Virus record (IMG/VR): IMGVR_UViG_3300010231_000015
Direction: 5' to 3' (one strand)
From: a virus
DNA: 44,528 nt
Positions 80 to 16,704 of this stretch are shown here, one piece after another; the first letter of the stretch is position 1; each line of letters begins with the position of its first letter. The notes beneath the pieces were generated by a model. That model searched no databases. It was not told the origin of the DNA and worked only from the letters and a program-made list of their open reading frames with translations. Both the position numbers and the translations under genes were made by a program.

Positions 80-1120
80 TTAGTCGCTGAAGATCACGCC
101 AACAGCGTCGGGACGGCGTTGGCCGACCGTGTACATCTGATACGAGTCGAGGTTCGACTGGAACTCCTTGTGGTCGTCCCACACCTTGACCGTCATCGGC
201 TGAGCTTCAACCGTGACCAGCGCCTTCTGCGGGAAGAACACGACGAGTTGTGCCTTCGCTTCCGCAGCCGACACGTCGAACGACGCACCCAACGGATGAG
301 CGACACCAGCGGTTGGGAAGATCGGAGCTTCGATCACACGCACGCCGTTCAGCACGGCGATACGACGCTGAGCGTAGTCGTTCGTTGCCGACGCACCTTG
401 GAAGTCCACGTTCATGAGCTTCTTGTGTTCCAGCAGCACGTTGAACGCGTCAGGCGTGATGAGCGTCACGGTCTGCGCGAGGCCAGCACCGAGACGACGC
501 TTCACGAATTCCGTCAGCACGTCCTTGTGATTCTGGACGATGATGTCGGCGGCGAGTTCGTAGCCGGTCAGGTCACGCGACGGGTCAACGACATCCGAGC
601 CAGCGGCCAGCGCGGCTTGATAGCCGGTCATGACTGCCTTGATACCCGGATGGAACGAGCCTGCCAGCGATGCCGGGGGCACGAACGCCGAGCACTTGAT
701 AAGCTGAATGACGTGCGCTTCATCGAAGCTGATGGCGTGCGCCGAGCCGTGCTCAGCCGAGTACTCAGCCTTGAAGTCCGGCGACGTCCAGTCATCCTGA
801 TAGTCGAACGGGGTACGGATGTAGCACACCGTGTCAACCGTCACGATGAACTTCTCGTTAGCGATACGGCTCGAATCGAGCTTCTCACCGGAGCGACGGC
901 CCTTCACCGTAGCCGCGCCGATACGGTCGCCGCGCCACGTATTCGTTTGGTTCTGCACCGACTTGAAGTTCGTCAGACCCGAGGCACGGAACAGCGACTC
1001 GGCACGGAACGAGCCTTCGATGTCACCTTCGTATGCTTCGATATGGATGTCGGTGTCGGCGTTCGCGCCAGCCCACCAAGTACGAGTCAATTGACCAGCG
1101 TTGTCAACGGGAGTGGACAT
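80..1120 (-). CDS. Major capsid protein (T7 gp10 / phiKMV gp32-like)
   Basis: 346-aa ORF starting at ATG 1120, with AGGAG 9 nt upstream. It lies between the scaffold gene and a strong intrinsic terminator, as in T7, and the sequence is typical of podophage capsid proteins. Confidence 0.9.
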   Translation of the reverse strand: MSTPVDNAGQLTRTWWAGANADTDIHIEAYEGDIEGSFRAESLFRASGLTNFKSVQNQTNTWRGDRIGAATVKGRRSGEKLDSSRIANEKFIVTVDTVCYIRTPFDYQDDWTSPDFKAEYSAEHGSAHAISFDEAHVIQLIKCSAFVPPASLAGSFHPGIKAVMTGYQAALAAGSDVVDPSRDLTGYELAADIIVQNHKDVLTEFVKRRLGAGLAQTVTLITPDAFNVLLEHKKLMNVDFQGASATNDYAQRRIAVLNGVRVIEAPIFPTAGVAHPLGASFDVSAAEAKAQLVVFFPQKALVTVEAQPMTVKVWDDHKEFQSNLDSYQMYTVGQRRPDAVGVIFSD

Positions 1121-1180: not shown

Positions 1181-2104
1181 TTACAGACCCATCTGCTTGC
1201 CGAGTTGGCGGCGTGCCGTAAGCTCGCGTTCGCGCTCGGGGAAGTCGCGTGCGCGACGGTCGAGCTTGAGACGTTCAGCTTGGTACGCTTCCTTCGACAA
1301 GCCGAGGGCTGCGTCAGGTGCCCCACCGCCTGCGCGGACGTGGCCTTGCGGTGGCGTAGGGAGCCCACCGTTGTTCTTCACGAAGTCCAGTAACGACTCA
1401 ACAGCCGTGGAGATTCGCTTCGGGTTCGCGGAGTCGATGCTTTGCGCAACGAACTCCTTGAGGTACTTCGGGGCCGCAGTGTTGAACACTTGAACAGCGG
1501 CGTCCCAGCGCTCTTGACCACCGGCCTTCGTGTGAATTTCGGTGGTGAGACGGGAGACGGTATCGGTGACGTGCGTGACGAGGCCCTGTGCAACCTTGAT
1601 GAGCTTGTCCGCATTCGCACCAGCCTTCTCGCGGAGATACGCGGCGTCGATCAGTGACACGTCGCCACGGTCGATTGCATTACCAACTGCGCGAGCGAGG
1701 TCGATGTCCGGTGCGACGAGTTCGAACGTCGAGAACGTAGCCATGAGGTAATCGTCAGCCTGCGCTGCGGCCTTGGTGGCAGACAGTGCGGCGTCAGCGC
1801 CCATACCAACGTCCTCGAAGCCCGAGGTACGCGCCGGGGCAGCGGGCTTAGCCGGAACCGGGGCAGGTGTGGGCGTGCCAGCCTGCGACGCCTTCCATGC
1901 TTGGAAAGCAGCAAACTCAGCGGCGTCCGCACCAGCCGGTGCAGCGGGAGCAGGAACGAAACCCGGTGCCTGTGTCGTAGCAGCGGGGAGCGGCGGCGCT
2001 ACCGGGGTCGGCGCACCTTCGCGGCTGTGTTGATGCACGGTCGCGTCAGCGGGAACTGCCTTGCTCGGGTCGATGCCAGCAGGCACAGATACTTGATGGG
2101 TCAT
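1181..2104 (-). CDS. Scaffolding protein
   Basis: 307 aa with an Ala/Pro-rich N-terminal half and a charged helical C-terminal half. It sits between portal and capsid. AAGGA RBS 5 nt before ATG 2104. Confidence 0.7.
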   Translation of the reverse strand: MTHQVSVPAGIDPSKAVPADATVHQHSREGAPTPVAPPLPAATTQAPGFVPAPAAPAGADAAEFAAFQAWKASQAGTPTPAPVPAKPAAPARTSGFEDVGMGADAALSATKAAAQADDYLMATFSTFELVAPDIDLARAVGNAIDRGDVSLIDAAYLREKAGANADKLIKVAQGLVTHVTDTVSRLTTEIHTKAGGQERWDAAVQVFNTAAPKYLKEFVAQSIDSANPKRISTAVESLLDFVKNNGGLPTPPQGHVRAGGGAPDAALGLSKEAYQAERLKLDRRARDFPERERELTARRQLGKQMGL

Positions 2105-5436: not shown

Positions 5437-7866
5437 TCAACAGAAGAAGAACTCACTGTTCTTAATCTCTTGAAGGTTAAGACTACTCTTCTTCGGAGCC
5501 TCACCAGTACCACCTACTTCCCACAGGAAGTCTAGTAATACATCATTGTGAGTATAGAGATTGACAAATTCCTCTCTGAGTATGGAATTCATCTGCGCTA
5601 CATCACAAGGGTGCGTACCGAACGAGTCATGGATTGCTACCATCTGCAAGCCTTCCTTGTTCATCCTGTTAGCTGTCATGGTTAGGTGACTAGCATCTAA
5701 GGCATGCACGAAGTTAGGCGCTATGGCGTTCTGCATCTTGCTCGGGTTAGTAGAGTCCAAGGGCTCATAGATCATCACCCGATTCACACCACACGAGTTA
5801 ATGCGTACACGAACCTGCTCTACGTCTTGGTAATCGTGCTGCACCTTAAACCCGGTGGGTGTTGTCCATTCCATGCGCTGCCCTTTCGGTACAGTGCGGC
5901 ATGCTTCCTTCAACCAGCGCATTGCTTGCGCTGCCGCTGGGACCGTTGCCTCGATACCGCTGAATAGCATCTTTGCCCCGTAGGTTGCCACGTCGCAATT
6001 GCGCTGCCCTTCGAGCTTCACGTCCTCGCGGTCGTGCAAGGCTTCCTGCTCCAAGAACTCGGCGGTCCCGCGCAGCGTCGCGCCGTAGACGTAGGTCATG
6101 ACCGGCTTCTTGGCCTGAGAACGCGTTATACCGGCTCGGAGCCAGTGGTCCCTAGCTACCCCTTCGGCTCGCTGTCGGAGCGCCTCCACGGCCTCATTTG
6201 CCACCTTCGTGTAGATGTCCTGCTTGGCATCCCCGCCCGAGTCGAACAGGTTGACGTACTTGCCGCCAATCGGGTCGCGGAGCATGGCGCTGAAGTGCTG
6301 AAGGCCCGAGCATGTCGCGTCCTGATGGCACGGTACGCCCGTCTCATACGTCGCCGGGTTCCCGCTGCGGTACGCTTCACGAAGCTCCCACGCGGCGGCG
6401 AACATGCACCACGGCGAGTCACCCCACACGTCAGGGTGGTTTTCCGGCTCGTCAAGGGCTCGCTCAATCTCGGCCCAATGCTCATCCACCCAGCGAACGC
6501 GGGCCGCTGTGCGAGCCTTGTCGAAGCCGTAGGAGTTGGCGATCTGCACCTTGAGCGCGTCCACGCCGTACCGGCCTAGTGGCTTCTTGTCTGCGAAGTG
6601 CAACGCGCCCTTGGCTACGTCCGTGCCCTGCGGGTTCGGCGTGCCGTTGTAGTACCAGCGGCCTCGGGTATCCATCATCACGGAGAACCACAGGCGGGAC
6701 GTGTCGCGCAGCCCGAGCTTCAGGAACCCGGCGATCTCCTGCGTGTGGCCTCGCCACTTCTTCATGTCGGTGTAGTACTGCGTCATGGTCCGTTTCCAAG
6801 CCATGAACAGGGCCTTCTCGGCCTCGGTGCCGTCCTCCTTGATCCAATCCTCGGGCAAGGGAAACGGCGGCTTGGCGGGCTTCTCACGGCTCGGCAGGCC
6901 CATCGTGTTACCACCGCCCTGCCACGCCCTGCGGATAGCTTCGAGCGTCGGCTGATGCACCGTGTACGGGATCGACTGAAGGTAGTTGGCGCAGGCGAAA
7001 ACCTGCGGCATCTTCTCGGCAGTGAACTGCTCGCGGATACGGCGCTTCTCCGAGCGGCGCACGCGGCGCAAGCTCATGAGCGGGAACGCCTGCTGACGGC
7101 GCACGCTGAGATAGCCGCCGCCGTCCAAGCGCTCCCACGGCAGCGGCGGGCACTGCATGGCCCCTGCCCCACGATCCACGATACCATGCACGTCGCTTTG
7201 GTCGTAGTCGTTGAGGTAGTCCGCAATCTCGACCTCAAGCTGATAGATGACCATGCCACCGGGCATCGTCACCGGCTTCACGAGGCCCGCGAGGTAGCAG
7301 GCATCGAGTCCGAACTTGCCGACTTGTATGCACTCGCTATCCGACAGCGAGCTATCGAGTTCGCCCTTCATGACACGATCATATGCCACGTTGTACAGAC
7401 GGCGAAGGTGACCATAATCGACCGTGCCGTTGCGGCGTACTTGGTCGTGAATCTTCTCCATGTACATCGGGTTGACTTCCTCGGCCTCAGCGATGCGAAC
7501 CTCAGTCTCATACAGACGACCGATGCGCACGCAAAGCATCTGCGCTGACGCCACTGCGCGGCGAGTCTTAGCTCCTGAGTCCGAACACTGCGAGATACAC
7601 TCACGCATGGCGATGAGCGCGGCCTTGTCTGCCCCGACGCGGCGCACCCATGCCTTGTACTTGCCACCAGTGCCGCGTGTCTTTACGTCCATTTCCACGG
7701 CGATGAGGTCACGCACCGTGGCGAACATCTTGGCGGTAAGACGCTGGGCTCGCGGAGCCTCGGCGTCACCCGACGCAGCCGCGTCCTGCAACTCCTTCAA
7801 TCGTGCAACAGCAGCCTCGCTATCGCACTTCAACTCATAAGCTAGTTGCATGTCCTGCGGCGTCAT
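5437..7866 (-). CDS. Single-subunit DNA-directed RNA polymerase (T7 RNAP family)
   Basis: 809 aa. AGGAGG RBS before ATG 7866. Carries ...KKPVMTYVYGAT... (motif B-like) and ...VAIHDSFGTH... (motif C). Its position at the end of the DNA-metabolism block is the phiKMV-type arrangement. Confidence 0.95.
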   Translation of the reverse strand: MTPQDMQLAYELKCDSEAAVARLKELQDAAASGDAEAPRAQRLTAKMFATVRDLIAVEMDVKTRGTGGKYKAWVRRVGADKAALIAMRECISQCSDSGAKTRRAVASAQMLCVRIGRLYETEVRIAEAEEVNPMYMEKIHDQVRRNGTVDYGHLRRLYNVAYDRVMKGELDSSLSDSECIQVGKFGLDACYLAGLVKPVTMPGGMVIYQLEVEIADYLNDYDQSDVHGIVDRGAGAMQCPPLPWERLDGGGYLSVRRQQAFPLMSLRRVRRSEKRRIREQFTAEKMPQVFACANYLQSIPYTVHQPTLEAIRRAWQGGGNTMGLPSREKPAKPPFPLPEDWIKEDGTEAEKALFMAWKRTMTQYYTDMKKWRGHTQEIAGFLKLGLRDTSRLWFSVMMDTRGRWYYNGTPNPQGTDVAKGALHFADKKPLGRYGVDALKVQIANSYGFDKARTAARVRWVDEHWAEIERALDEPENHPDVWGDSPWCMFAAAWELREAYRSGNPATYETGVPCHQDATCSGLQHFSAMLRDPIGGKYVNLFDSGGDAKQDIYTKVANEAVEALRQRAEGVARDHWLRAGITRSQAKKPVMTYVYGATLRGTAEFLEQEALHDREDVKLEGQRNCDVATYGAKMLFSGIEATVPAAAQAMRWLKEACRTVPKGQRMEWTTPTGFKVQHDYQDVEQVRVRINSCGVNRVMIYEPLDSTNPSKMQNAIAPNFVHALDASHLTMTANRMNKEGLQMVAIHDSFGTHPCDVAQMNSILREEFVNLYTHNDVLLDFLWEVGGTGEAPKKSSLNLQEIKNSEFFFC

Positions 7867-7875
7867 CGGCCCTCC

Positions 7876-8094
7876 TTAAATGTCCATACCGTATGCGCCG
7901 ACAACCTCGGCGCGGAGTGAGAACGCAGCTTGCGCGTCGTACTCAGCGAGTTCGCGGAGAATCGTCACCGCTGCACTCGGGTTGCCAGATTCCATCGCTG
8001 CCAACACGAAGCGGCGTACATTCACGATGGTCTCCTGCCGCGCGGCCATCGTTTGATCCGGCCACGTCTCCAACTGTTCTGCTACTGCTTCCAT
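7876..8094 (-). CDS. Hypothetical protein
   Basis: Start moved to ATG 8094 (GGAGG RBS 4 nt upstream). 72 aa. Preceded by motif-1 copy A. Confidence 0.6.
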   Translation of the reverse strand: MEAVAEQLETWPDQTMAARQETIVNVRRFVLAAMESGNPSAAVTILRELAEYDAQAAFSLRAEVVGAYGMDI

Positions 8095-8114
8095 GTAACC
8101 TCCGTTGCGCTTCG

Positions 8115-8127
8115 TAAATTGCGAGTA
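8115..8127 (-). promoter_or_regulatory. Motif-1 copy A (minus strand TACTCGCAATTTA)
   Basis: One of six copies of TACTCGCAATTCA. Lies 20 nt upstream of ATG 8094. Confidence 0.45.
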
Positions 8128-8154
8128 CAACCGCCGACATCCCGACCCCGTACA

Positions 8155-9120
8155 TCAGAGCCGTCCGATCCAGCGACCGTCCTCATTGAGTTGCATCGGG
8201 ATTTGCATGGGCCGACCATTGAGAATGATCGTGCAGCCGACGATGGGCTTGTTCTTCGATTGCTTGCCATAGGCGAATGCGTAGCTCTTGTTGTCGATCA
8301 GGCATCCACCATAGGCACCCCAATAGAGGTAATCAGTGCTCGCGCAGTACTCGGTACTGAAATTGCCATGCGAGTGGCCGACCATGAGATTGCACCGGTT
8401 GTGAGCAGCATCTGCAAGGATGCCACTTGACTGGTGCTTAAACTTAACGTCGCCAAGAGGGGTATGTACGATCCACTCGAAGGCCCACGACCATCCCTTC
8501 GCACCGTGTCCGGGGAAGATGACATCGCGGTATCGCCGGATGAACTGGACGGGCAGGCCGTGCGCTTTTGCGCGTCGGTAAGCCATTGAGCCGTGATTCG
8601 AGGAACACACAAGCATGTTGGGGAACACTCGGTGCAACTGCTCCATGACAACCTTCCCGCGTTCGAGTTCGGGTCCTGCGCTGTCGAGGTTGGGGTCACT
8701 GTCGTGGAACGACATTGCGTGCATGTCAAGCTCGTCTCCCGCGTTGACGACAAGATCAATCGGGAAGGCTTTCTTCACTGCCTTCAGGAACGGGATCATG
8801 TCGGGATGGTTGTACGGCGCGTGCTGATCCGGGATGTGCAGGATGCAGCAGTACGTCTTGTTGAAGTCGGGCAAGATGCCGATGTCGTCGTCGGGGTCCG
8901 GTACACGCAGCTTGCGGTCGCTCTTGAGTTGACGATCCGTCGCTGCCATGTTGCCCTCGTTGTCGAGGAAGATGCGACGCCAGTAGCTGACGTTCTGCCG
9001 AGTGATCGGCACGCCTGCCTTGCGGCTGTAGACCTTGGCGGCGTCGCCGTTGTCGGGGTTCTTGACAAGGATTACTTCGTGTTGTTCTTTCGTGAACATA
9101 CGCATCAACTGTCCGCGCAT
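8155..9120 (-). CDS. HTH-like N-terminal segment fused to a calcineurin-like metallophosphoesterase
   Basis: 321 aa. The AGGAGGA RBS overlaps the stop codon of the upstream gene. Metallophosphatase motifs IPDQH, NAGDELD, SSNHG and VGHSHG are present. The N-terminal FTKEQHEVIL...GVPITRQNVSYWRR looks like an HTH. Confidence 0.7.
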   Translation of the reverse strand: MRGQLMRMFTKEQHEVILVKNPDNGDAAKVYSRKAGVPITRQNVSYWRRIFLDNEGNMAATDRQLKSDRKLRVPDPDDDIGILPDFNKTYCCILHIPDQHAPYNHPDMIPFLKAVKKAFPIDLVVNAGDELDMHAMSFHDSDPNLDSAGPELERGKVVMEQLHRVFPNMLVCSSNHGSMAYRRAKAHGLPVQFIRRYRDVIFPGHGAKGWSWAFEWIVHTPLGDVKFKHQSSGILADAAHNRCNLMVGHSHGNFSTEYCASTDYLYWGAYGGCLIDNKSYAFAYGKQSKNKPIVGCTIILNGRPMQIPMQLNEDGRWIGRL

Positions 9121-9128
9121 TGGTCCTC

Positions 9129-9671
9129 CTAGTAGAATTCGGGAAACTTGTGTTGGATGTACAGCTTGCGCTCGTCGCAGCCGTCACGATGCGTCGGCTT
9201 AATGCCGTACTGGATGCTCGGGAACTCGGGATGCACACGCACCAGCAGACGGCCTTGGTGTTCTTCGAACCATGCGTAGTTCAGCGAGCAGTCGAAGTCC
9301 TCCACCACGTTGTGCGGGTCGCCCTTGAACGTGAGTGTCTTGGCCGGTGTGTACACGAGGAACTGAACCTTCAGGTCGCGGTGATCCACGTCCACACCCA
9401 GCGCCGATTCAAAGACGTAGGCGAGGTTGCGGTCCTCGTTGACGTACTCCACATCGTCGCCAAGCTCCCGGCATTCGAAGTTCGTTGAGAGTTCTACCAC
9501 CCTGCGGAACGTCTCGGGCTCGTGGACTGTGTTCAGCACTACGAAGTCGTAGTCGTTCGGAGTGCGACCAAGGTAGTAGTCGCGGGCAGCGCCACCGCAA
9601 CAGACCACGTAGATACCGTAGTCGCGTAGGCGCTGAATCATGTTGTACACTGCTTCGAGTTCACGGTTCAC
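9129..9671 (-). CDS. Minimal class-II (CCA-adding/poly(A) polymerase-type) nucleotidyltransferase, head domain only
   Basis: 180 aa with a GTG start at 9671 (GAGGGG RBS). CCGGAARDYYLGRTPNDYDFVV matches GGxxRDxxLG-x4-DxD. EDFDCSLNYAW resembles the RRDFTxNA motif. There are no neck, body or tail domains. Confidence 0.65.
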   Translation of the reverse strand: MNRELEAVYNMIQRLRDYGIYVVCCGGAARDYYLGRTPNDYDFVVLNTVHEPETFRRVVELSTNFECRELGDDVEYVNEDRNLAYVFESALGVDVDHRDLKVQFLVYTPAKTLTFKGDPHNVVEDFDCSLNYAWFEEHQGRLLVRVHPEFPSIQYGIKPTHRDGCDERKLYIQHKFPEFY

Positions 9672-10119
9672 GTTGGCCCCTCATAGCTCGTTGCGCTTTC
9701 TGCTGTGCGCGTCGTTGTTTGGCGGCGAGGTTCCGGTCATTGCGTTTCTTCGCAGCGGTTTCCTCGGCGGACTTGTGCGTCGGGTAGATCATTGCGCAGC
9801 CCGGTCGCTCGTAGTAAGCCAGCAGCTTCTTGAGCCAGTCGATAATGTCGGGGTACGCATGCGACTTAGCTCCCCAGCTACCAGCCGCATTAGCGACCTT
9901 CCCTTCTCCTGAGTTGCAGGAGCGATGGAGGACGCCGCGTATCTCGCCGGTGTCGTGGTTGTGATCGACAACCCCTTCTTTCGGGATGCTAAGGTCAACG
10001 GGTTTGAGGCAGATTGCACACAGACCTCCTTGCACGATTTTGAGTTGCTTAATCTTCCACGCGGGCATCATGGCGCGGCTGAGCTTTCGCATACGCGGCT
10101 GCTCGTCTTGCTCGCTCAT
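9661..10119 (-). CDS. Recombination endonuclease VII (T4 gp49-like)
   Basis: 152 aa. AGGAGG RBS. Carries CAICLKPVD...VVDHNHDTGEIRGVLHRSCNSGEGK, the endonuclease VII DHxH..G.hRGhLC..CN signature. Confidence 0.85.
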   Translation of the reverse strand: MSEQDEQPRMRKLSRAMMPAWKIKQLKIVQGGLCAICLKPVDLSIPKEGVVDHNHDTGEIRGVLHRSCNSGEGKVANAAGSWGAKSHAYPDIIDWLKKLLAYYERPGCAMIYPTHKSAEETAAKKRNDRNLAAKQRRAQQKAQRAMRGQREP

Positions 10120-10185
10120 CGAGCCTCCTTCTAATCGTTAGGGACTCGATAGCCAGCGCAAGCCGGTTCCTATCGAGCCACTCGT

Positions 10186-11082
10186 TCACTTGAACCACGG
10201 TCGGCGCACGCACTCCGCGAGGTACTTCGCATTCGCGGCGGACCACGGTAGTTCGTTGAGGTAGAGCCATACGTTGTCCTTCGGATGACGAAGCAACCAC
10301 AGCATCCACGCCTCGGGCAACGGGTTCTGGTCAATCTCCCGGTATGCGTCGATTACCGTGTTAGCCAACGCTTCGATGTCGGTGATGGGGTCGAGCAGCT
10401 TGTGGGCGTCAACCGGGCCGATGTTCTTGCCTTTGTACTTCAGCAGGCCCTTCACGTTGTCGGCGGTATCGCCCATGACCATCTGCGCCCAAAAGAACTT
10501 GAGCGAGCGACCCAGCAGCTTCTTCTGCCCGCTCGGCGTCTCGTCAATCCATAGCTCACCGAACGGATCGGACGGCATCACCACACCACGCTTGATGTCG
10601 TAGTACGGATAGGGCGTCATGCGTAAGTCCTTGTCATCGGACCGCACCACGCCCTTCTCGCCAAGGTGATACGCCAGCATAATCATGGCGTCGTCCGCTT
10701 CCACGACCGTCTCCATGTGGACATCGAACTCATCCATCGCGCCGTCCTCGTATGCTGCCTCGCGCACCTGAGATAGAAGCGGAGGCTTTGCACCGCTATC
10801 CCGCTGCCCCTGATACGGCTTTACGCCGATGACGTTGAAGCGACCGGCCTTCGTACATTCCTCGTGCGTCAGGAACACTTCACCGTCGCTACAGTCAGCG
10901 AGGAAGATTTGCTCAAGGATCGAGGATTGGAAACGACGAAGGCCGGTGGCGACCGTCTTGACCGTGGCAGCAGCCACGTAGGCAGGACCGTCACCGTCGA
11001 TGATGAGGGTCTTGCCTGATTGGGAGGGAACAGCGAAGTCGTCGGCGGGCAGTGCATCTGTGTCCACGCCGTTGATAATCAT
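10186..11082 (-). CDS. 5'-3' exonuclease (T7 gp6 / FEN family)
   Basis: 298 aa with an ATGA overlap to the upstream gene. Carries LIIDGDGPAY, SDDKDLRM and GDTADNVKGL, which are PIN/H3TH-type motifs. Confidence 0.8.
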   Translation of the reverse strand: MIINGVDTDALPADDFAVPSQSGKTLIIDGDGPAYVAAATVKTVATGLRRFQSSILEQIFLADCSDGEVFLTHEECTKAGRFNVIGVKPYQGQRDSGAKPPLLSQVREAAYEDGAMDEFDVHMETVVEADDAMIMLAYHLGEKGVVRSDDKDLRMTPYPYYDIKRGVVMPSDPFGELWIDETPSGQKKLLGRSLKFFWAQMVMGDTADNVKGLLKYKGKNIGPVDAHKLLDPITDIEALANTVIDAYREIDQNPLPEAWMLWLLRHPKDNVWLYLNELPWSAANAKYLAECVRRPWFK

Positions 11083-11402
11083 AGCTTGGCAACGGCCTCG
11101 GTGAAGATTTCGAAGCCCATACGGGACGCAATCTCGAATTCGAGCATCGCTCCGCGTGAACGCTCCCAGCCTTTCAGCAGGTATATAGCGTCACAGTAGA
11201 TAAGCTCCTTGATGTCGTTGCGCATGAACTCGCGCCAGCGATCATCACCCGGCACCACGTCACCGTTGCCGGGATCGGGGTTGATGTTGGCCGGATTGAC
11301 CGGCTCGTGTCCCTCGGCTCGCAGCCGAATCTCCGCAGCCTTGAACGCTGGGTAGTTGTGCTCGGCGTAGCCCGACATCGGGCCAGCAATATAGACCTTC
11401 AT
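11079..11402 (-). CDS. DUF4406 / nucleoside 2-deoxyribosyltransferase-like protein
   Basis: Start moved to ATG 11402 (AGGAGG RBS 4 nt upstream). 107 aa. MKVYIAGPMSGYAEHNYPAF...VNP is typical of the DUF4406/NDT-like fold. Confidence 0.55.
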   Translation of the reverse strand: MKVYIAGPMSGYAEHNYPAFKAAEIRLRAEGHEPVNPANINPDPGNGDVVPGDDRWREFMRNDIKELIYCDAIYLLKGWERSRGAMLEFEIASRMGFEIFTEAVAKL

Positions 11403-11412
11403 CGGGCCTCCT

Positions 11413-11529
11413 TTAGAATGGGATGTCGTCCGCGCAGTCGTCGCAGACCCATACAGCGCGATTCGCCGTGGTGAACACACCCTTACGGCTGTCCTTCACA
11501 CCACGGCAACTCGTACACGTATGGGTCAC
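11413..11529 (-). CDS. 38-aa Cys4 zinc-ribbon micro-protein (not in the ORF track)
   Basis: The GTG start overlaps the upstream TGA (GTGA). Sequence MTHTCTSCRGVKDSRKGVFTTANRAVWVCDDCADDIPF (CxxC-x18-CxxC). Its TAA abuts the next gene's RBS. There is no clear SD sequence of its own. Confidence 0.4.
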   Translation of the reverse strand: MTHTCTSCRGVKDSRKGVFTTANRAVWVCDDCADDIPF

Positions 11530-12557
11530 TGAGCCAAAGGGACGCTAGGCACCACAGGAGCTACGGCAGGGGCCGCAACCGCAGCGACCGGAACAGCGGG
11601 AGCAGCGACCGGAGCGACCGGCGTAACCGCCACAGGGGCAGACGGTACTGCCGGGGCGGGAGCCACTGCGGGCGGTGTAGCGGGGACCGAAGCGGCTGCA
11701 ACGTTTGGGGCGACTGCCGGAGCAGCAGCGGCCACAGGAGCCGTCGCCGGGACGACCGGGGCCACAGGTGCCACCGCACCTACGGGAGCCGCTCCTGCGG
11801 GCTGTGCGCCAGCCGGGGCCACGCCCTGCTTCTGCGGCGTGCCTGCCGGGATCGGGCGGCTGTTCTGGATCAGCAGACCTTCGAGCGCCGAGCCACGGAA
11901 GTCGGTAGCGCCCGCGATCTTCTCCTGCACCCAGTTCTTCGACTTGCCTTGGTCGTTGGTGCCCTCGATGAACAGCGCGTCCCAGCCTTCGAGTGTCGGC
12001 ATTGCCCACGAGAACAGGAACAAGTCCTCGGTGCGCACAGCGGGGCATACGTACTCGGTCTTGTTGATGAGGTCGATGCCCGGACGCACGTCAGCGACGA
12101 TGCTCTTGGGCTCGGTGCCCGGTGCCGCCGTCTTGGAAACGTAGTCCTTGATTTCCACGAGGAACACATGGCCGTCACCGATCAGACCGGCGAAGTTCTT
12201 CGCAAGGCCCTTGTAGTTCATGGCCTTGAACCACTTGAAAGCCTTGGCCTTCTCGTTGCGGCTCTTGGTCATGTCGAACGTGTTGATGATGTACGGCGTG
12301 CCATCCTCGTTGACGTAACCCGGCGAGTACAGTGCGAAGCCGAGTTCGAATTGCAGGGCCGGGTCTTTGGCCTTGCCTTGGTGTACCGTGATGTGCTTGC
12401 CCTTCTCGATGTACTGCACGAGGCGAGCAACGGACCAACCTTCCGGCAAACGGCGACCGTAGTTACCACCGCCCGCTTGGGCTTCGTTCATGTCGTCGTC
12501 GCACTCGTTGAGTGCTGCGGCCATTGCTGCGATTTGTTCTTGGGTCATCGTGCTCAT
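11526..12557 (-). CDS. Hypothetical replication-module protein with a roughly 110-aa Ala/Pro/Val-rich C-terminal tail
   Basis: 343 aa. AAGGAG RBS. Preceded by motif-1 copy B. The globular N-terminal two-thirds are followed by ...APVAPVVPATAPVAAAAPAVAP... through to the C-terminus. Confidence 0.75.
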   Translation of the reverse strand: MSTMTQEQIAAMAAALNECDDDMNEAQAGGGNYGRRLPEGWSVARLVQYIEKGKHITVHQGKAKDPALQFELGFALYSPGYVNEDGTPYIINTFDMTKSRNEKAKAFKWFKAMNYKGLAKNFAGLIGDGHVFLVEIKDYVSKTAAPGTEPKSIVADVRPGIDLINKTEYVCPAVRTEDLFLFSWAMPTLEGWDALFIEGTNDQGKSKNWVQEKIAGATDFRGSALEGLLIQNSRPIPAGTPQKQGVAPAGAQPAGAAPVGAVAPVAPVVPATAPVAAAAPAVAPNVAAASVPATPPAVAPAPAVPSAPVAVTPVAPVAAPAVPVAAVAAPAVAPVVPSVPLAQ

Positions 12558-12608: not shown

Positions 12609-13310
12609 TTAAAGCAGGTTCGGGTAAAGCTCGTTCAGATGCTCGATGACCTTCTCGACCTCAGAGAAAGTCGCCTGTGTCGCTGCCTGATACGACCGGG
12701 GTTGCCGTGTCGGAACAGCGGGTTGACCGGGAATCACGACGCGGTTATCCACCAGCATCCCCGTTGCCTCGGCAGACAACAGGATCGTGCAGCACGCCTT
12801 GATCGCGCCAAGGTGATGCACGAGTTCCTTCGGGTCCACACGCTCACCGCTGGCGTACTGCAAGCAGTGCCGCATGATCGCGCCGATATACGTCATCAAC
12901 TCGACCGGCGTCTGCAAGTAGTTGTTCTCGCCGTACTTCCGCTTACCGGCGTGCAGCGCTGCCGACTCGTGAAGCTGGGCGATCATGTGGATCAGATGCA
13001 GCGGCGGCTTCTTGTCGCCGTACCGCTGCTTCGGGTTAGTCGGCGCGGTCGAGTTCGGGTGTGGTGGGCCGGGGTACAGCCTGTCCTTCAGCACGTCCCC
13101 GAGATTTGGCGCACAAGGTATGGCATCCTTAACGACCGTCGGAAACGGCTCGAAGCGGCTGACGTGCAGTTCTTCCGTGATCCCGTCGAGCAGCACGTAG
13201 TTAGGCCCGCGCGCCTCCCGAACTCGGTACACCTTGCCCTTCATCAACTTCTCGGGGCAATTACCAGCCCACGTACACACGACATAATCACCACGTTTAA
13301 ACAGATTCAA
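12609..13310 (-). CDS. SH3-like N-terminal domain plus a dATP/dGTP pyrophosphohydrolase-like (DUF5664-type) domain
   Basis: 233 aa. TTG start at 13310 with a GGGAGG RBS and a TTGA overlap with the DNAP stop. KPPLHLIHMIAQLHESAALHAGKRKYGENNY...IMRHCLQYASGERVDPKELVHHLGA fits the ..GxxKY..xNW...RH...GE..D.. pattern. Confidence 0.5.
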   Translation of the reverse strand: MNLFKRGDYVVCTWAGNCPEKLMKGKVYRVREARGPNYVLLDGITEELHVSRFEPFPTVVKDAIPCAPNLGDVLKDRLYPGPPHPNSTAPTNPKQRYGDKKPPLHLIHMIAQLHESAALHAGKRKYGENNYLQTPVELMTYIGAIMRHCLQYASGERVDPKELVHHLGAIKACCTILLSAEATGMLVDNRVVIPGQPAVPTRQPRSYQAATQATFSEVEKVIEHLNELYPNLL

Positions 13311-15853
13311 GCAGCCCTCCCGTATAGCTTCTCGACAGTCGCCGGATCATTCAGCACGCCTTCGTGCCAGTGCAACTTGTCTTTCATGTTGAGGCCGAAC
13401 TCCGCAGCAGCGGGGAACGGGACGTTGAGGTTGTAGCCGTACTTCTCGCTGAAGTAGCGCGGCAAGTCCTCCATGATCGCCTTGATACCGGCAAGCACGA
13501 TGTCCAGTACCGAGTGGTGACAATCGACGTAGATAGCATCGTGAACCGTATTAATCACGAACACGCGCCCGCCGAAGAAGTCGTTAGCGATGAGCCAACG
13601 AATCACACGGCCACTGATACCCTGCACGAAGAAGCCTGACTCGCCCTGAATCGGGTAGTTGCGCATCTGCGTCGGCTTGAACTCCATGACTTGCACGCGC
13701 TTGCGTTGCCCGCCTTCGAACACAGTGCGAACCTTCTCGTACTCGCGGAACTCGTAGCACGTACCGCCCACGGCCTTATAATGGCCACGGCCATACACGC
13801 GCCACTCACCACTGTCCGTCTGCTCCCGGAACAACTGACGTGTCGCCGCAACCATCGGGAACACTTCCTGATCGAAGTACGCTTCGACTCCGGGGAACAG
13901 TGCCTTCTCGCGGTCAATAAACGCCTGAGCTTCTTCGACCGGCATACCCGTAGAGAACGAGATACCCATAGCCGTAGCGCCGTACTGGTACGCAAACGCA
14001 GGCGGCTTGATGTCCGTCCGCATCGCATCGTACTTCGCATGCTCAGGGTGATCTTGGTTCTTGCACTTCTCCAAGACAGATTCATACGGCTCCCCGAGCT
14101 TCGCACTCAAGCGCAGGCAGTGCATGTCGATCTTGTCGAGCAGCGCCTTGATGAGTTGCTTGTCCTGAGAGAACGCCGCAAGCGTCACGACTTCTAGCGC
14201 GCTGTAGTCCAGTTCGCAAATAAAGCCGTTCTTGATGCCCCGCTTGATTTCGTCCATGCACAGGTCGAAGAACTCCTGCCCTATGAGGCCGACGCCCAGC
14301 GCGTAGATGAGCCACTTTGGAGACGAGAACCGCGACACGAACATGGCCTTCACGTCGCTCGTGTTACCACGCGGCAGGTTCTGGAAGTTCGGGCGGTTAG
14401 ACGACAGCCGCGTTGTCGCGGTCGCCGTTGTGTTCAACGTGTGATGCACGATGTTCAGGTCGTCCATGTACTGCAACATACCCGACACCTTCACCACGTT
14501 GCCCTCGTCGTCGTACTCCTTGCGCAAGTAGTACGTACCCATGTCCTTGTCCACCTTGTTGAAGGTATCCAAGTCCGTCAGCACCTTGCGGACGTTCTCC
14601 GGGAACTCCTTGCGCTTCGTCAGGAACTCTAACGAATCCTTGCCGGTGGCGATGACGGGCGACTCGTCGGCCAGCTTACGCTTGCCGGTGAACTCCTTCA
14701 GGAACTCCTCGCGGATCGTCTCGCTCAGCAGCGAGAGGTCGCACAGCGGCGGCGCATGATACAGGGTGTCCTCCCATATCAGTTTCTGCGTCGTCGTGTC
14801 CTCCCGAGTGACCTTGATGAGCCCCTTGTTCTTGCCGCTCTTGTAGCGTTCGAACGTGAAGCCGTGGTCGAACCCGGCAGTCTCCGGGTCTTTCCACTCG
14901 ATGCGCTCTTGCGGTGTGCCGCTGTCCATCAGCACAGGCATGTGCCCCTGCTCGTTGAGGAACACGGTCATCGCAACCGGGCCGGTCATCTTAACGGCGT
15001 CGCCCTTCTCCCATACCGGCGTACCGTCATCGTTGAACTTGGGCACGCGGTGCCGGTACTTGATCGGTCCGCCGAACAGCCACGCGCTCATGTGGAAGTC
15101 GCTCGTCTCCTTGAATTCCAACGCGCCGGGATAGCCACCACGGTATGCACGGAACGACTCACGCAGCGAGGCGATCTTGGCCTCACCTTCCTCAAGCTGC
15201 CGGAACGCAACCTCGGTGTCGATGAGCAGGCCCGAGTCCATCGCGTAGCAATTGAACAGCAGGCCCTCCATGCGCTCAAGCGCCATGTCCCACATGCCAC
15301 GCTCGGTAAGCTGCTGATACTGGCCGTAGAAGATGGTCCGCGTGTTCGCCACGTCGCCATGCGTCGGGCTGATGAGGTACTCCAACAGAAGCGCCGGGTC
15401 AATCTCAGACGTGAGTTTGCCCTGCTCCCACAGCGCCTTAACGCCGTCCACCTTGTGCGTCCCGCCGTACAACGGCGCAATCTCGTTGAGCGCCGGGTAC
15501 GTGTCCCGCTGATTGCTGAGCAGGTAGTGGGCGTAGGCCGTACAGAAGATGCGCCCGCCACGCTTCAGGAACTTATGAAGCTCCTGCCGCTGCTGCACGA
15601 GAGACCAGTCCAGTTCGAACGCGGCGTTGTGCATGACGATGAGCCACGCATCATCCGGGATCGAGAGCCAAGGCCGACTCGCGGCCTGTTCTTTCGACTC
15701 GTTGCGTATGTACTCGATAGCGCCGTCATACGGCTGCGTGTCGATGGCCCAGCCGTTCAGCACCACGTAGTTATCAGGACAACGCGGAGAGGCGACAGCG
15801 CCGAACCACGGCTTGTTCTCCGTCTCCAAGTCCCAAAACATGATGCGGCTCAT
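13307..15853 (-). CDS. DNA polymerase, family A, with 3'-5' exonuclease domain
   Basis: Start moved to ATG 15853 (GGGAGGA RBS, ATGA overlap with the ligase stop). 848 aa. Exonuclease motifs FWDLETE and NAAFELDW. Polymerase motifs DYSALEV (A), RTDIKPPAFAYQYGAT (B) and NTVHDAIYVD (C). Confidence 0.92.
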   Translation of the reverse strand: MSRIMFWDLETENKPWFGAVASPRCPDNYVVLNGWAIDTQPYDGAIEYIRNESKEQAASRPWLSIPDDAWLIVMHNAAFELDWSLVQQRQELHKFLKRGGRIFCTAYAHYLLSNQRDTYPALNEIAPLYGGTHKVDGVKALWEQGKLTSEIDPALLLEYLISPTHGDVANTRTIFYGQYQQLTERGMWDMALERMEGLLFNCYAMDSGLLIDTEVAFRQLEEGEAKIASLRESFRAYRGGYPGALEFKETSDFHMSAWLFGGPIKYRHRVPKFNDDGTPVWEKGDAVKMTGPVAMTVFLNEQGHMPVLMDSGTPQERIEWKDPETAGFDHGFTFERYKSGKNKGLIKVTREDTTTQKLIWEDTLYHAPPLCDLSLLSETIREEFLKEFTGKRKLADESPVIATGKDSLEFLTKRKEFPENVRKVLTDLDTFNKVDKDMGTYYLRKEYDDEGNVVKVSGMLQYMDDLNIVHHTLNTTATATTRLSSNRPNFQNLPRGNTSDVKAMFVSRFSSPKWLIYALGVGLIGQEFFDLCMDEIKRGIKNGFICELDYSALEVVTLAAFSQDKQLIKALLDKIDMHCLRLSAKLGEPYESVLEKCKNQDHPEHAKYDAMRTDIKPPAFAYQYGATAMGISFSTGMPVEEAQAFIDREKALFPGVEAYFDQEVFPMVAATRQLFREQTDSGEWRVYGRGHYKAVGGTCYEFREYEKVRTVFEGGQRKRVQVMEFKPTQMRNYPIQGESGFFVQGISGRVIRWLIANDFFGGRVFVINTVHDAIYVDCHHSVLDIVLAGIKAIMEDLPRYFSEKYGYNLNVPFPAAAEFGLNMKDKLHWHEGVLNDPATVEKLYGRAA

Positions 15854-16704
15854 TTGTCCTCCCTGATGCGGTGGAAGCGCGGGTGCCGATAGCCGCCTTG
15901 GCGGTCGCGCTCCATATACGTGAACTCGATCCACTTGCCGACGATCAACGATGGGATAGCCCAAATGGCGCGGGCGAAGTCGTGATCGAAGCCGGGGACG
16001 CTGCATGTGCTGCCGTCCTCCATCACCACGTCGAGCGAACCGGCGCGGTTGTGCGGCGTGCCGTCCTCAGCAATCGCTTGGTTCACCTTAACAACCACGC
16101 CATCCGCGTCGTTCTCGGGCTTGTACTTCAGCCAGCCATACGTGCGCTTGCCGAGTTCGTAGACGTGTTCCCAATCCTTGACCATGATGCCCTCGTAGCC
16201 TTGCTCTCGGGCGTGCAGGAACGCAGCCTCAACGCCTGCCTCGTCGTAGACGTGGACGCGCTGTGGGCGTAGCATGGGGATGCCGCGTGCCCTCGCATCG
16301 GATGCGACCTCATCAAGCTGCCAGCATCGTGCGCGGAACGCCTCCTTCCATTCCGGCATGTCGAACAGAAGGAACTCAATGGTCGAGCGCTTCAGGTCAT
16401 CCGGCAGTCCCTTTGAGCTACGCACATAGCTGTACGTATCATCGAAGCTTCCGTTTATCAACACGCCACAGTCCAGACGGCTATAGCCGTTAGCACCCAT
16501 GAACTGCTCGAACACAGGTGCCCAGCCGTCGAGGTTGTGCAGCGGCTTCTCCGCGTAGCTCAGGAAGCGAACCTGCCCGGCGATCACACGCACGTCAAGC
16601 CGGATTTCGTCCAGCTTAATCTCAGCCACAGCCGGGTACTTCAGCTTGTGCTTACCCTTGGCGAACGTGTGACCCTTCATCAACTTGTGAGTAGGGCCGC
16701 TCAC
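15850..16704 (-). CDS. ATP-dependent DNA ligase (T7 gp1.3-like)
   Basis: 284 aa with a GTG start at 16704 (GTGA overlap). AEIKLDEIR is motif I, with E where G is usual. Also EGIMVK (motif IV), WLKYKP (motif V), and a C-terminal ..GGYRHPRFHRIR. Confidence 0.85.
   Translation of the reverse strand: MSGPTHKLMKGHTFAKGKHKLKYPAVAEIKLDEIRLDVRVIAGQVRFLSYAEKPLHNLDGWAPVFEQFMGANGYSRLDCGVLINGSFDDTYSYVRSSKGLPDDLKRSTIEFLLFDMPEWKEAFRARCWQLDEVASDARARGIPMLRPQRVHVYDEAGVEAAFLHAREQGYEGIMVKDWEHVYELGKRTYGWLKYKPENDADGVVVKVNQAIAEDGTPHNRAGSLDVVMEDGSTCSVPGFDHDFARAIWAIPSLIVGKWIEFTYMERDRQGGYRHPRFHRIREDK

Follow-up and report, generated by a model that had tools for sequence, protein, structure and literature searches.

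Two adjacent genes for a head-only class-II nucleotidyltransferase and a metallophosphoesterase in an RSB3-like phage: enzyme identities, neighbourhoods and possible roles

In the window (the whole stretch of viral DNA analysed here, 44,528 nucleotides, IMG/VR record IMGVR_UViG_3300010231_000015), a gene for a small nucleotidyltransferase (NTase) is followed closely, on the same strand, by a gene for a metallophosphoesterase (MPE). Do these two proteins form a functional unit? A first-pass annotation of the sequence had proposed that they are a split, translationally coupled version of a bacterial CCA enzyme, serving RNA 3′-end repair or nucleotide signalling. The genome is that of an RSB3-like Autographiviridae phage, and both genes lie in its middle (DNA/nucleotide metabolism) cluster; neither belongs to the T7/phiKMV core, as the annotation had remarked. 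Both are new members of known, widespread and uncharacterised phage families, phrog_1614 for NTase and phrog_221 for MPE. The former was already noted in the literature, and our search of the literature on the two families returned no experimental work, only annotation-level notes and analogies.

Layout of the locus

The features of the locus, in the order of transcription, are as follows.

9661..10119, minus strand: endonuclease VII (Pfam Endonuclease_7, E=7e-14)
9129..9671, minus strand: NTase, a stand-alone head-only class-II (CCA/poly(A)-type) nucleotidyltransferase (phrog_1614, Pfam, Foldseek, hhalign)
9546..9596, minus strand: NTase motif A, G26 G27 A A R30 D31 ... G35 ... P38 x D40 x D42, with the metal-binding DxD of the Pol-beta fold
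9279..9293, minus strand: NTase motif B core, D127-C-S-L-N131, in which both D127 and N131 are kept by 90% or more of 75 diverse family members
9132..9263, minus strand: family-specific C-terminal region of NTase, residues ~137-180, a beta-hairpin and a helix (hhalign, model, conservation)
9121..9131, minus strand: overlap of the NTase stop codon (TAG, 9131..9129) with the MPE Shine-Dalgarno sequence (AGGAGG, 9130..9125)
8155..9120, minus strand: MPE, 321 aa (phrog_221, E=8.8e-87, residues 1-319)
8911..9120, minus strand: N-terminal helical domain of MPE, residues ~1-70, five helices (model, conservation)
8158..8853, minus strand: catalytic domain of MPE, residues ~90-321 (metal-ligand motifs, model, Foldseek)
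7876..8130, minus strand: 84-aa gene between MPE and RNA polymerase (50% identical to RSB3 gp30, E=2e-17)

As read from the window, the NTase frame (9671..9129, 180 aa) opens with a GTG that gives an 11-nt overlap with the end of the endonuclease VII gene, a start choice backed by the N-terminal alignment of 28 homologs. The MPE frame (9120..8155) opens with the ATG at 9120, 4 nt after its AGGAGG, and the intergenic gap is 8 nt. The overlap of the NTase stop with the MPE ribosome binding site is real, as the annotation had described it, but the coupling that had been read into it is not a special feature: spacings in the surrounding cluster vary between −11 and +66 nt, so that one of 8 nt does not stand out, and the overlap is ordinary, generic operon packing. 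A scan of the minus strand from 7700 to 11600 for sigma-70 promoters and terminators gave nothing above chance.

Endonuclease VII is a conserved upstream neighbour, of NTase in the window lineage and of MPE in most other lineages. The window holds no tRNA gene, and neither a kinase nor an RNA ligase was found beside the pair; the sole ligase of the window is an ATP-dependent DNA ligase encoded upstream of the DNA polymerase. An odd-looking plus-strand ORF of 424 aa at 119-1393 was discarded, since it runs antisense to genes for capsid and scaffold.

Identity of the two proteins

NTase matches the phrog_1614 profile over essentially its full length (residues 10-179, E=3.5e-24). Its Pfam match, PolyA_pol (PF01743), scores 23 bits, exactly the gathering cut-off, and covers residues 25-51 only. 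When the family profile was compared with PDB sequences, all significant matches were class-II enzymes (E=3e-4), and so were the best 29 Foldseek matches in the PDB (E from 4e-5) of an AF2 model with a pLDDT of 92.1. Finally, hhalign paired the family with full-length class-II enzymes at 98.1% (E=1.4e-13), over the head only. The full-length set consisted of CCA/PAP-like genes of large phages, collected by a scan of viral contigs with the NTase alignment A2; that scan retrieved mostly such genes, and was unusable for synteny. These comparisons confirm that NTase is, as the annotation had proposed, the head domain of a class-II (CCA/PAP-type) nucleotidyltransferase standing alone, and not an MNT-type protein.

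The two signature motifs are present as first read, GGAARDYYLGRTPNDYDF at residues 26-43 and DFDCSLNYA at residues 125-133. The first is motif A, with both catalytic carboxylates in the expected pattern (GG-x-x-RD-x3-G-x4-D-x-D); it aligns with GGAVRDxxLGxxPKDYD of the full-length enzymes, and among 75 diverse family members G26, G27, D31 and D40 are invariant, and R30, K39 and D42 at least 90% conserved. In the second, the Arg-Arg of the canonical RRD of motif B is replaced by D125 and F126, a replacement found family-wide, so that the family profile 'eefDctLN' pairs with 'KRRDLTIN' of the full-length proteins. The hhalign alignment reaches no further than position 130 of the 195 in the family profile, ahead of motifs C and D, and on the other side spans only positions 25-144 of ~380-aa enzymes. 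No motif D (EDxxR) was found in the C-terminal region, either in the alignment or by hhalign; this region has an invariant R168 and a near-invariant K175, and has no counterpart in the full-length enzymes. NTase is thus devoid of motifs C, D and E, as well as of the neck, body and tail whose absence had already been pointed out. In class-II enzymes, the Arg-Arg of motif B is linked to ribose recognition, and motif D is the amino-acid template that chooses CTP and ATP. Lacking the Arg-Arg, motifs C, D and E, body and tail, NTase is therefore not a canonical CCA-adding enzyme. Compared with the class-II enzymes of known structure (PDB 6q52, 1miv, 4wby, 3aqk), it has the head fold in common, along with motif A and D-x3-N of motif B, but counts ~180 aa, with a C-terminal extension of its own, against ~400 aa.

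NTase-like proteins are found in many Autographiviridae, and proteins of 150-260 aa from about 112 representative clusters can be aligned with the family profile from end to end. The nearest known relatives, Ralstonia phage RSB3 gp28 and Variovorax phage VAC_51 CAI3971392 ('nucleotidyltransferase', phrog_1614), are likewise head-only, with 180-190 aa, are 38-43% identical over the full length, and also directly follow endonuclease VII; they differ from NTase in what comes next, a phrog_403 exonuclease, in genomes without MPE. More distant are the putative 'tRNA nucleotidyltransferases' described in Autographiviridae (Evseev et al. 2020, PMC7693777): gp10 of Pectobacterium phage MA2, gp25 of Yersinia phage fHe-Yen3-01, gp20 of Klebsiella phage SU503, and the protein of Pseudomonas phage LKD16. 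Proteins of this type are small class-II heads too, found by structural matching (TM 0.55-0.72) and by the same family HMM, but are only ~20-30% identical to NTase and are usually encoded beside the DNA polymerase. NTase identity is 38-61%, compared with 44-81% for flanking genes, among which the exonuclease, endonuclease VII and RNA polymerase reach 67-81%, and with 86-89% for MPE: within its block, the NTase gene evolves fastest.

The second protein is confirmed as a calcineurin-like metallophosphoesterase with intact metal ligands, in line with the motifs first listed for it (DQH, GDELD, NHG, GHSH). The ligands D98-Q-H100, G128-D-E-L-D132, N175-H176-G, H229 and G248-H-S-H251 are invariant in 43 homologs and account for the five motifs of the superfamily (DxH, GDxxD, GNH[DE], H, GHxH), with a deviation in motif III, which reads SNHG. 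Two loops of the model, 134-146 and 176-192, are highly conserved yet of low confidence. Searches with the sequence against the PDB and Pfam yielded nothing useful, and Pfam Metallophos (PF00149) matches 9 of the 43 relatives, the window protein itself falling below threshold. Foldseek brought up Vps29, Mre11/SbcD, LpxH and MJ0936 (E 9e-7 to 3e-4), and all listed matches belong to the MPE superfamily, with the possible exception of an integrative model (9a6c). At TM 0.3-0.4 these matches are generic, and they include the non-nuclease members LpxH and Vps29. The N-terminal helical domain (pLDDT about 90 at residues 11-60) is kept in most family members, with H14, Y31, Y46, W47, R48 and G56 invariant. 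The HTH-like character given to it in the annotation is putative: searched on its own, the domain matched no Pfam family and no PDB sequence.

The phrog_221 family is present in 642 phage records. Its members in Pseudomonas phage Eisa9 (ORF25, 60.6% identity) and in KP34-like, SP6-like and Pokrovskaiavirus phages are homologous to the window MPE over the full length, N-terminal domain included, and usually come after endonuclease VII; they differ in that an NTase is mostly not adjacent, or not even present. With Mre11/SbcD, Clostridium thermocellum Pnkp and mycobacteriophage A10ZJ24 Gp48 (PMC12287305), the window MPE shares the dinuclear calcineurin-like fold and the five metal motifs. The likeness is at superfamily level only (TM 0.3-0.4, ~10-14% identity), the window protein having neither the Mre11 capping/dimerisation domain nor a fused kinase or ligase. 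Mre11 and SbcD rank among its best fold matches, and all of these enzymes, Gp48 as an analogue, are precedents for an action of MPEs on DNA or on the ends of nucleic acids. As judged from their sequences, the features of NTase and MPE are far beyond chance (phrog_1614, E=3.5e-24; phrog_221, E=8.8e-87).

The phosphohydrolase domain of bacterial CCA enzymes such as that of E. coli is an HD domain, of a fold unrelated to MPE, and the Pfam search detected no HD family. The 'split bacterial CCA enzyme' is therefore an analogy only, and NTase itself, without motif D and the Arg-Arg of motif B, also speaks against it.

Distribution of the two genes

If the pair were a module, the two genes would be expected to travel together, and the annotation had named a lack of co-conservation as grounds against it. 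Co-conservation did not hold: all four presence/absence states occur. RSB3 and VAC_51, both complete genomes, have NTase and no MPE anywhere, and the complete genomes of KpV475, Eisa9, Axy09 and RoP3a have MPE and no NTase. Out of 80 MPE-bearing viral contigs, 15 have an NTase within 10 kb and 65 (81%) do not. Even in these 15, only 2 NTases are directly adjacent to MPE, and 10 are 5.2-6.5 kb away. The usual place of NTase is beside the DNA polymerase (ligase-NTase-DNA polymerase or DNA polymerase-NTase), and that of MPE is after endonuclease VII. Given this independent occurrence of the two families, NTase and MPE look like neighbours and not like a dedicated RNA-repair module.

Some observations nevertheless leave room for a functional link. 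The order endonuclease VII-NTase-MPE is found in the window clade (L007, L008, L010) and recurs in a more distant phage (L067, with identities of 47% for RNA polymerase and 27.5% for NTase), only 0.1-1 kb separates MPE from an upstream NTase in Drulisvirus, and NTase is present in 15 of 80 MPE-bearing contigs, versus 3 of 80 contigs bearing a DnaQ-like exonuclease.

This exonuclease is what occupies the place of MPE in the sister phages. The backbones are collinear, endonuclease VII-NTase-[MPE or DnaQ-like exonuclease]-small gene-RNA polymerase, the 84-aa gene marking the downstream edge of the swappable slot, and in RSB3 and VAC_51 the gene after NTase encodes a DnaQ-like 3′-5′ exonuclease (phrog_403). 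The two were never found together, neither in 7 complete genomes nor in 160 sampled contigs (0/80 and 0/80), counts that are partly confounded by phylogeny. This non-co-occurrence suggests that MPE and the DnaQ-like exonuclease have equivalent nuclease-type roles. Two candidates were dismissed along the way: RSB3 gp29 ('DNA polymerase exonuclease subunit'), considered as a second type of MPE, is a DnaQ/RNase_H_2-type exonuclease, and Axy09_028, encoded downstream of MPE and considered as a DnaQ-like exonuclease, has a weak dNMP-kinase match.

The slot also bears on the proposed signalling role, by which NTase would make and/or MPE destroy a cyclic or linear signalling nucleotide, as a counter to CBASS, Pycsar, Thoeris or type III CRISPR defence. 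The MPE superfamily has some members that act as phosphodiesterases on cyclic nucleotides, the fold matches include MJ0936, and both families are accessory and patchy. But MPE is encoded in the DNA-metabolism cluster, at a place that a DnaQ-like exonuclease can take instead, and neither protein matched a PADLOC model at E<=0.1. The 50 Foldseek matches listed for NTase include no CD-NTase, and OAS-like proteins come no higher than E about 3e-2; nearest in structure are class-II RNA 3′-end enzymes, which places NTase outside the defence-type groups (CD-NTase, MNT-HEPN, AbiEii-MenT). Moreover, the phage enzymes known to degrade such signals have other folds (2H, MBL, ring nucleases). We consider a signalling role very improbable.

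Possible functions

We favour, with a probability of about 0.6, the reading that NTase and MPE are two separate accessory enzymes, adjacent in the window lineage and forming no obligate pair. NTase has an intact motif-B core (D-x3-N) along with the metal-binding DxD, and is probably catalytically active. By analogy, it would add one or a few nucleotides to a 3′-OH without a template, most probably on RNA, because every class-II enzyme characterised to our knowledge does so; a canonical selection of C, C and A would be impossible for it, and its fast evolution would fit an enzyme handling host-specific targets. The dinuclear MPE may act as a nuclease or phosphodiesterase on nucleic-acid ends during the DNA-metabolism phase, in a role equivalent to that of the DnaQ-like exonuclease. 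A phage MPE that damages DNA as a phosphodiesterase is a precedent (PMC12287305). The substrates of both families are what we infer here.

In the module first envisaged, MPE would unblock RNA or tRNA 3′ ends and the head-only NTase would rebuild the missing nucleotide(s). The block to be removed would be a 3′-phosphate, a 2′,3′-cyclic phosphate or a pyrophosphate that results from attack by a nuclease or toxin of host defence. Both enzyme identities on which this proposal was built have stood; the split version, co-conservation and coupling have not. In its favour, the genes keep their order and are tightly linked both within the window clade and in L067, they are nearly adjacent in Drulisvirus, and the partner of NTase in the sister phages is also of a 3′-end-processing type. 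Phages of Aeromonas and Pectobacterium have genes for a HAD_PNKP phosphatase and a P-loop kinase downstream of MPE, and the MPE domain of C. thermocellum Pnkp heals RNA 3′ ends (PMC2190708). Targets would also exist, as the defence toxins MenT (PMC10435456) and toxSAS (PMC11559606) attack the tRNA 3′ end. Against it, NTase is missing from most MPE-bearing contigs and MPE from RSB3 and VAC_51, the two genes are mostly 5-6 kb apart when both are present, NTase has neither motif D nor tRNA-binding domains, and MPE has no specific similarity to Pnkp-type phosphatases. Nor does the window have, next to the pair, the kinase and RNA ligase of a Pnkp-type end-healing system (kinase, phosphatase and ligase), or any tRNA gene. 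RNA 3′-end repair by this pair is a minority reading, and we hold it to be unlikely.

A broader version takes NTase and whichever enzyme follows it, MPE or DnaQ-like exonuclease, as a 3′-end remodelling cassette, in which the second enzyme would trim or deblock damaged tRNA or RNA ends and the head-only NTase would rebuild them. Ends that are pyrophosphorylated, extended or cleaved by host toxins are examples of what such a cassette could handle. We regard this as doubtful, at little more than one chance in ten.

Could NTase instead act on DNA, in connection with replication, for instance by extending primers or DNA 3′ ends in the manner of a terminal transferase, perhaps with dNTPs, MPE being an unrelated DNA nuclease? 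Its position directly beside the DNA polymerase in most lineages, or between endonuclease VII and the nuclease-type slot in the window, would suit this, and so would the family-wide loss of the Arg-Arg of motif B. Yet we know of no characterised class-II enzyme that acts on DNA, and neighbourhood is weak evidence in a co-directional 40-kb phage genome. The patchy, host-genus-biased distribution reported for the Autographiviridae 'tRNA nucleotidyltransferases' (PMC7693777), along with fast evolution, is better suited to a host-interaction role. An action on DNA appears improbable.

If the reading as two separate enzymes holds, the label 'tRNA nucleotidyltransferase' for the small Autographiviridae protein should give way to head-only class-II NTase of unassigned substrate, with no claim of CCA addition, and the NTase-MPE adjacency should not count as an operonic module. 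It would also mean that a well-populated family of ~180-aa class-II heads works without the parts that select nucleotides and bind tRNA. Were the remodelling cassette true, small podophages would have a new way of countering host defence, in which ends are rebuilt without a canonical tRNA-binding domain. For MPE, which over 600 sequenced phages carry, with many therapeutic Klebsiella phages among them, the mutual exclusivity and shared slot of phrog_221 and phrog_403 provide the first testable hint at a function.

The middle gene cluster

The window is a complete-length genome of an Autographiviridae-type podophage (44.5 kb, 59% GC, genes on the minus strand); among sequenced phages, Ralstonia phage RSB3 and Variovorax phage VAC_51 are closest to it. 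Read as transcribed, the middle cluster starts with primase, helicase, DNA ligase and DNA polymerase, followed by a dATP/dGTP-diphosphohydrolase-like protein, a phrog_862 protein, a DUF4406/nucleoside-deoxyribosyltransferase-like protein, a 5′-3′ exonuclease and endonuclease VII. Then come the two genes of interest, an 84-aa protein and the single-subunit RNA polymerase (RNAP). No tRNA gene was found in the window.

9671..9129, minus strand, nucleotidyltransferase (NTase), 180 aa
9120..8155, minus strand, metallophosphoesterase (MPE), 321 aa

The sequence features quoted for both ORFs in the first-pass annotation are all in place. The NTase gene starts at a GTG, shares 11 nt with the end of endonuclease VII, and its TAG stop overlaps the AGGAGG ribosome-binding site of MPE, the gap being 8 nt. 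A sequence scan revealed no promoter- or terminator-like signal between the genes of this region. Since gaps between neighbours in the cluster range from -11 to +66 nt, such tight spacing is the rule and does not mark a special pair.

The 233-aa protein at 12609-13310 (minus strand) matches Pfam dGTP_diPhyd_N (PF18909, dATP/dGTP diphosphohydrolase N-terminal, E=1.9e-22). The label 'endolysin; inhibits RNA polymerase', carried both by its top PHROG family (phrog_2252) and by the syntenic gene gp24 of RSB3, looks like an annotation error that has spread. The DUF4406/nucleoside 2-deoxyribosyltransferase-like protein (11079-11480, minus strand; Pfam E=8.5e-25; phrog_355) is a further nucleotide-metabolism accessory gene of the cluster, and it runs 4 nt into the start of the exonuclease. 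The ORFs of DNA polymerase (16006..13307, taken from the first start codon) and DNA ligase (16704..15850) share ~157 nt (15850-16006); as polymerase profile matches begin near residue 51, the true start is probably further downstream. The 424-aa ORF at 119-1393, the sole long plus-strand ORF of its region, was rejected as spurious: it runs antisense over the genes of the major capsid protein (1108..83, 88% identity to RSB3) and the scaffold protein (2104..1184, 50% identity to RSB3).

A nucleotidyltransferase reduced to the class-II head

The 180-aa ORF had been placed among class-II (CCA/poly(A) polymerase-type) enzymes, rightly so, as Pfam, PDB profile, structure and profile-profile matches agree. 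Sequence profiles group it there weakly but consistently: Pfam PolyA_pol scores exactly the gathering score (residues 25-51), and the NCBIfam near-misses that outrank a chance match to biotin repressor are without exception PcnB or CCA enzymes. Against PDB sequences, the sole significant matches of the family profile are E. coli poly(A) polymerase and CCA-adding enzymes. The 29 best PDB structure matches of the AlphaFold2 model (29 homologs, pLDDT 92.1, pTM 0.87) are all class-II CCA-, CC- or A-adding enzymes or poly(A) polymerase, while terminal uridylyltransferases, Pol mu and OAS-like proteins match at least 2 orders of magnitude more weakly. An MNT-type placement is excluded by the structure search and a PADLOC scan. 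Neither of these gave positive evidence for a nucleotide-signal module, the other role once proposed for the two genes, which we regard as very improbable.

Aligned profile to profile with full-length phage class-II enzymes (98.1% probability, E=1.4e-13), a set of 75 family members matches over the head only, through motif A and ending just past motif B, where 'eeFDCtLN' aligns to 'KRRDLTIN'. The motif B Arg-Arg is absent across the family, the alignment has no equivalent of motif C, of motif D (EDxxR, the template that selects the nucleotide) or of motif E, and neck, body and tail are absent from NTase. In their place stands a family-specific C-terminal beta-hairpin plus helix, with R168 invariant and K175 near-invariant. 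Judged from its motifs and domains, NTase is thus no CCA-adding enzyme in the defined sense. It is most probably catalytically active, because the catalytic carboxylates are kept in 75 of 75 diverse members. As to the nucleotide added and its acceptor, we infer that NTase would be a template-independent 3′-terminal nucleotidyltransferase, choosing the nucleotide and binding the substrate via its own C-terminal element. RNA would be the likeliest acceptor since, to our knowledge, all characterised class-II enzymes act on RNA 3′ ends; a link to DNA or replication instead seems rather unlikely.

NTase matches phrog_1614 ('nucleotidyltransferase', E=3.5e-24). Searched exhaustively with the family profile, 1.84 billion representatives yielded 168 relatives, ~112 of them 150-260 aa long and aligned end to end, and the divergent member gp10 of Pectobacterium phage MA2, as sole query, matched 227 phage records. 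The same small fold occurs in a viral structure library for RSB3, LKD16, LIMEzero, Cd1, PP2, Ninurta, fHe-Yen3-01, phiAS7 and others. Evseev et al. (PMC7693777) counted 37 of 46 Pectobacterium Autographiviridae, and 60 of >500 others, with a 'tRNA nucleotidyltransferase' whose role they left open; our literature search found no experimental characterisation of the family. NTase is the most diverged gene of the block in all 8 collinear relatives (L006-L011, L047 and L048; 38-61% identity), compared with 44-72% for the 84-aa gene, 67-81% for exonuclease, endonuclease VII and RNAP, and 86-89% for MPE. Fast divergence with invariant catalytic residues fits an enzyme tracking host-specific targets, a pattern that by itself does not specify them.

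The metallophosphoesterase

The second protein is indeed a calcineurin-like metallophosphoesterase: its five metal-binding motifs are all invariant, and 49 of the 50 listed structural neighbours have the calcineurin fold (Vps29, Mre11/SbcD, LpxH, MJ0936; E 9e-7 to 3e-4), the 50th being an integrative model (9a6c), which stands outside this count. It matches phrog_221 full-length (E=8.8e-87); Pfam Metallophos is reached by 9 of 43 close relatives and missed by the window protein. Homologs number 642 phage records (Klebsiella, Escherichia, Pectobacterium, Pseudomonas, Aeromonas, Vibrio and Proteus phages among them) and 756 protein clusters. The structural likeness (TM about 0.3-0.4) does not go beyond the superfamily, and therefore no substrate can be read from the fold matches.

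Residues 1-70 form a conserved, confidently predicted five-helix domain with no match among Pfam and PDB sequences. The label 'HTH-like' is plausible here, given a helix-turn-helix-like stretch around the invariant Y46-W47-R48. Residues 134-146 and 176-192 (8683-8721 and 8545-8595), flanking the active site, are among the most conserved segments of the family (H134, S137, F138, H139, D140, D142, P143; H176, G177, S178, A184, K185, G188). Model confidence for both is nonetheless very low, so these may be loops that bind the substrate and become ordered only when it is bound.

A HAD_PNKP-type phosphatase (Pfam PF25109) is the next gene after MPE in phages of Aeromonas and Pectobacterium, and in 25AhydR2PP a P-loop kinase-like protein comes next, a set resembling a split T4-Pnkp-like end-healing set. 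Yersinia phage fHe-Yen3-01 has a weak P-loop match one gene past MPE.

Coordinates of these phosphatase and P-loop matches downstream of MPE in other phages:
L015, 9966-11103
L014, 9951-10433
L013, 10112-10759

Association of the two genes and the shared slot

The first-pass annotation saw in the two genes a split CCA enzyme. This is an analogy only, because the phosphohydrolase domain of bacterial CCA enzymes is an HD domain, whereas the neighbour here is MPE. Co-conservation in relatives, expected of such a pair, largely failed. RSB3, VAC_51 and contigs L006, L009 and L011/L012 carry a DnaQ/RNase_H_2-type 3′-5′ exonuclease (phrog_403) directly after NTase, not MPE; among the closest NTase-bearing phages, only the window and L007, L008 and L010, three near relatives from metagenomes, have NTase then MPE. 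Complete genomes scanned by HMM show all combinations: RSB3 and VAC_51 have NTase without MPE, and KpV475, Eisa9, Axy09 and the SP6-like RoP3a MPE without NTase, even at E<=1. Phages with both genes mostly keep them well separated: in fHe-Yen3-01, MA2, 25AhydR2PP and K13PH07C1L, NTase adjoins DNA polymerase and MPE lies 4.5-6.5 kb downstream, after endonuclease VII.

Among 80 MPE-bearing IMG/VR contigs (10-kb flanks), NTase was absent from 65, 5.2-6.5 kb upstream in 10, 0.4-1 kb upstream in 3 (the Drulisvirus arrangement: DNA polymerase, NTase, small gene, optional HNH gene, MPE) and directly adjacent in 2. Its frequency given MPE, 19%, is about the overall literature rate for the virus family. 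In the Drulisvirus-like contig L120 (9496-9912), the NTase directly upstream of MPE has only 138 aa and may be a truncated or decaying copy.

These counts, and the lack of MPE in RSB3 and VAC_51, argue against a true two-step RNA 3′-end repair cassette. We still grant it a small chance, because L067, one of the two adjacent cases, repeats the order endonuclease VII-NTase-MPE-x-RNAP in a clearly more distant phage (RNAP 47%, NTase 27.5% identical) and NTase is rarer in exonuclease-bearing contigs (3/80).

MPE and the DnaQ-like exonuclease fill the same slot in collinear backbones, endonuclease VII-NTase-[X]-small gene-RNAP, and the small gene beyond it in the window has 50% identity to its RSB3 counterpart.

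Window 8155-9120, minus strand, MPE
RSB3 (L047) 17316-18119, DnaQ-like exonuclease

The phrog_403 protein has a C-terminal zinc ribbon and 1267 phage records. The two proteins never co-occurred in 7 complete genomes; in surveys L056-L215 the exonuclease was found in 0/80 MPE contigs and MPE in 0/80 exonuclease contigs, counts partly confounded by phylogeny. Alternation inside one tight clade suggests non-orthologous displacement, and gives the strongest hint so far of a nuclease or phosphodiesterase function of MPE at nucleic-acid ends, equivalent to that of the exonuclease in the sister phages. The Mre11/SbcD fold neighbours also point this way, and so does Gp48, an MPE of a mycobacteriophage that shows phosphodiesterase activity and disrupts the DNA of the host (PMC12287305).

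We therefore favour, with a probability of about 0.6, two independent accessory enzymes: NTase active at 3′ termini, MPE a nuclease or phosphodiesterase. Both add members to phage families that are known and annotated but uncharacterised, and the points of note are the head-only NTase architecture and the MPE/exonuclease exclusivity, each directly testable.
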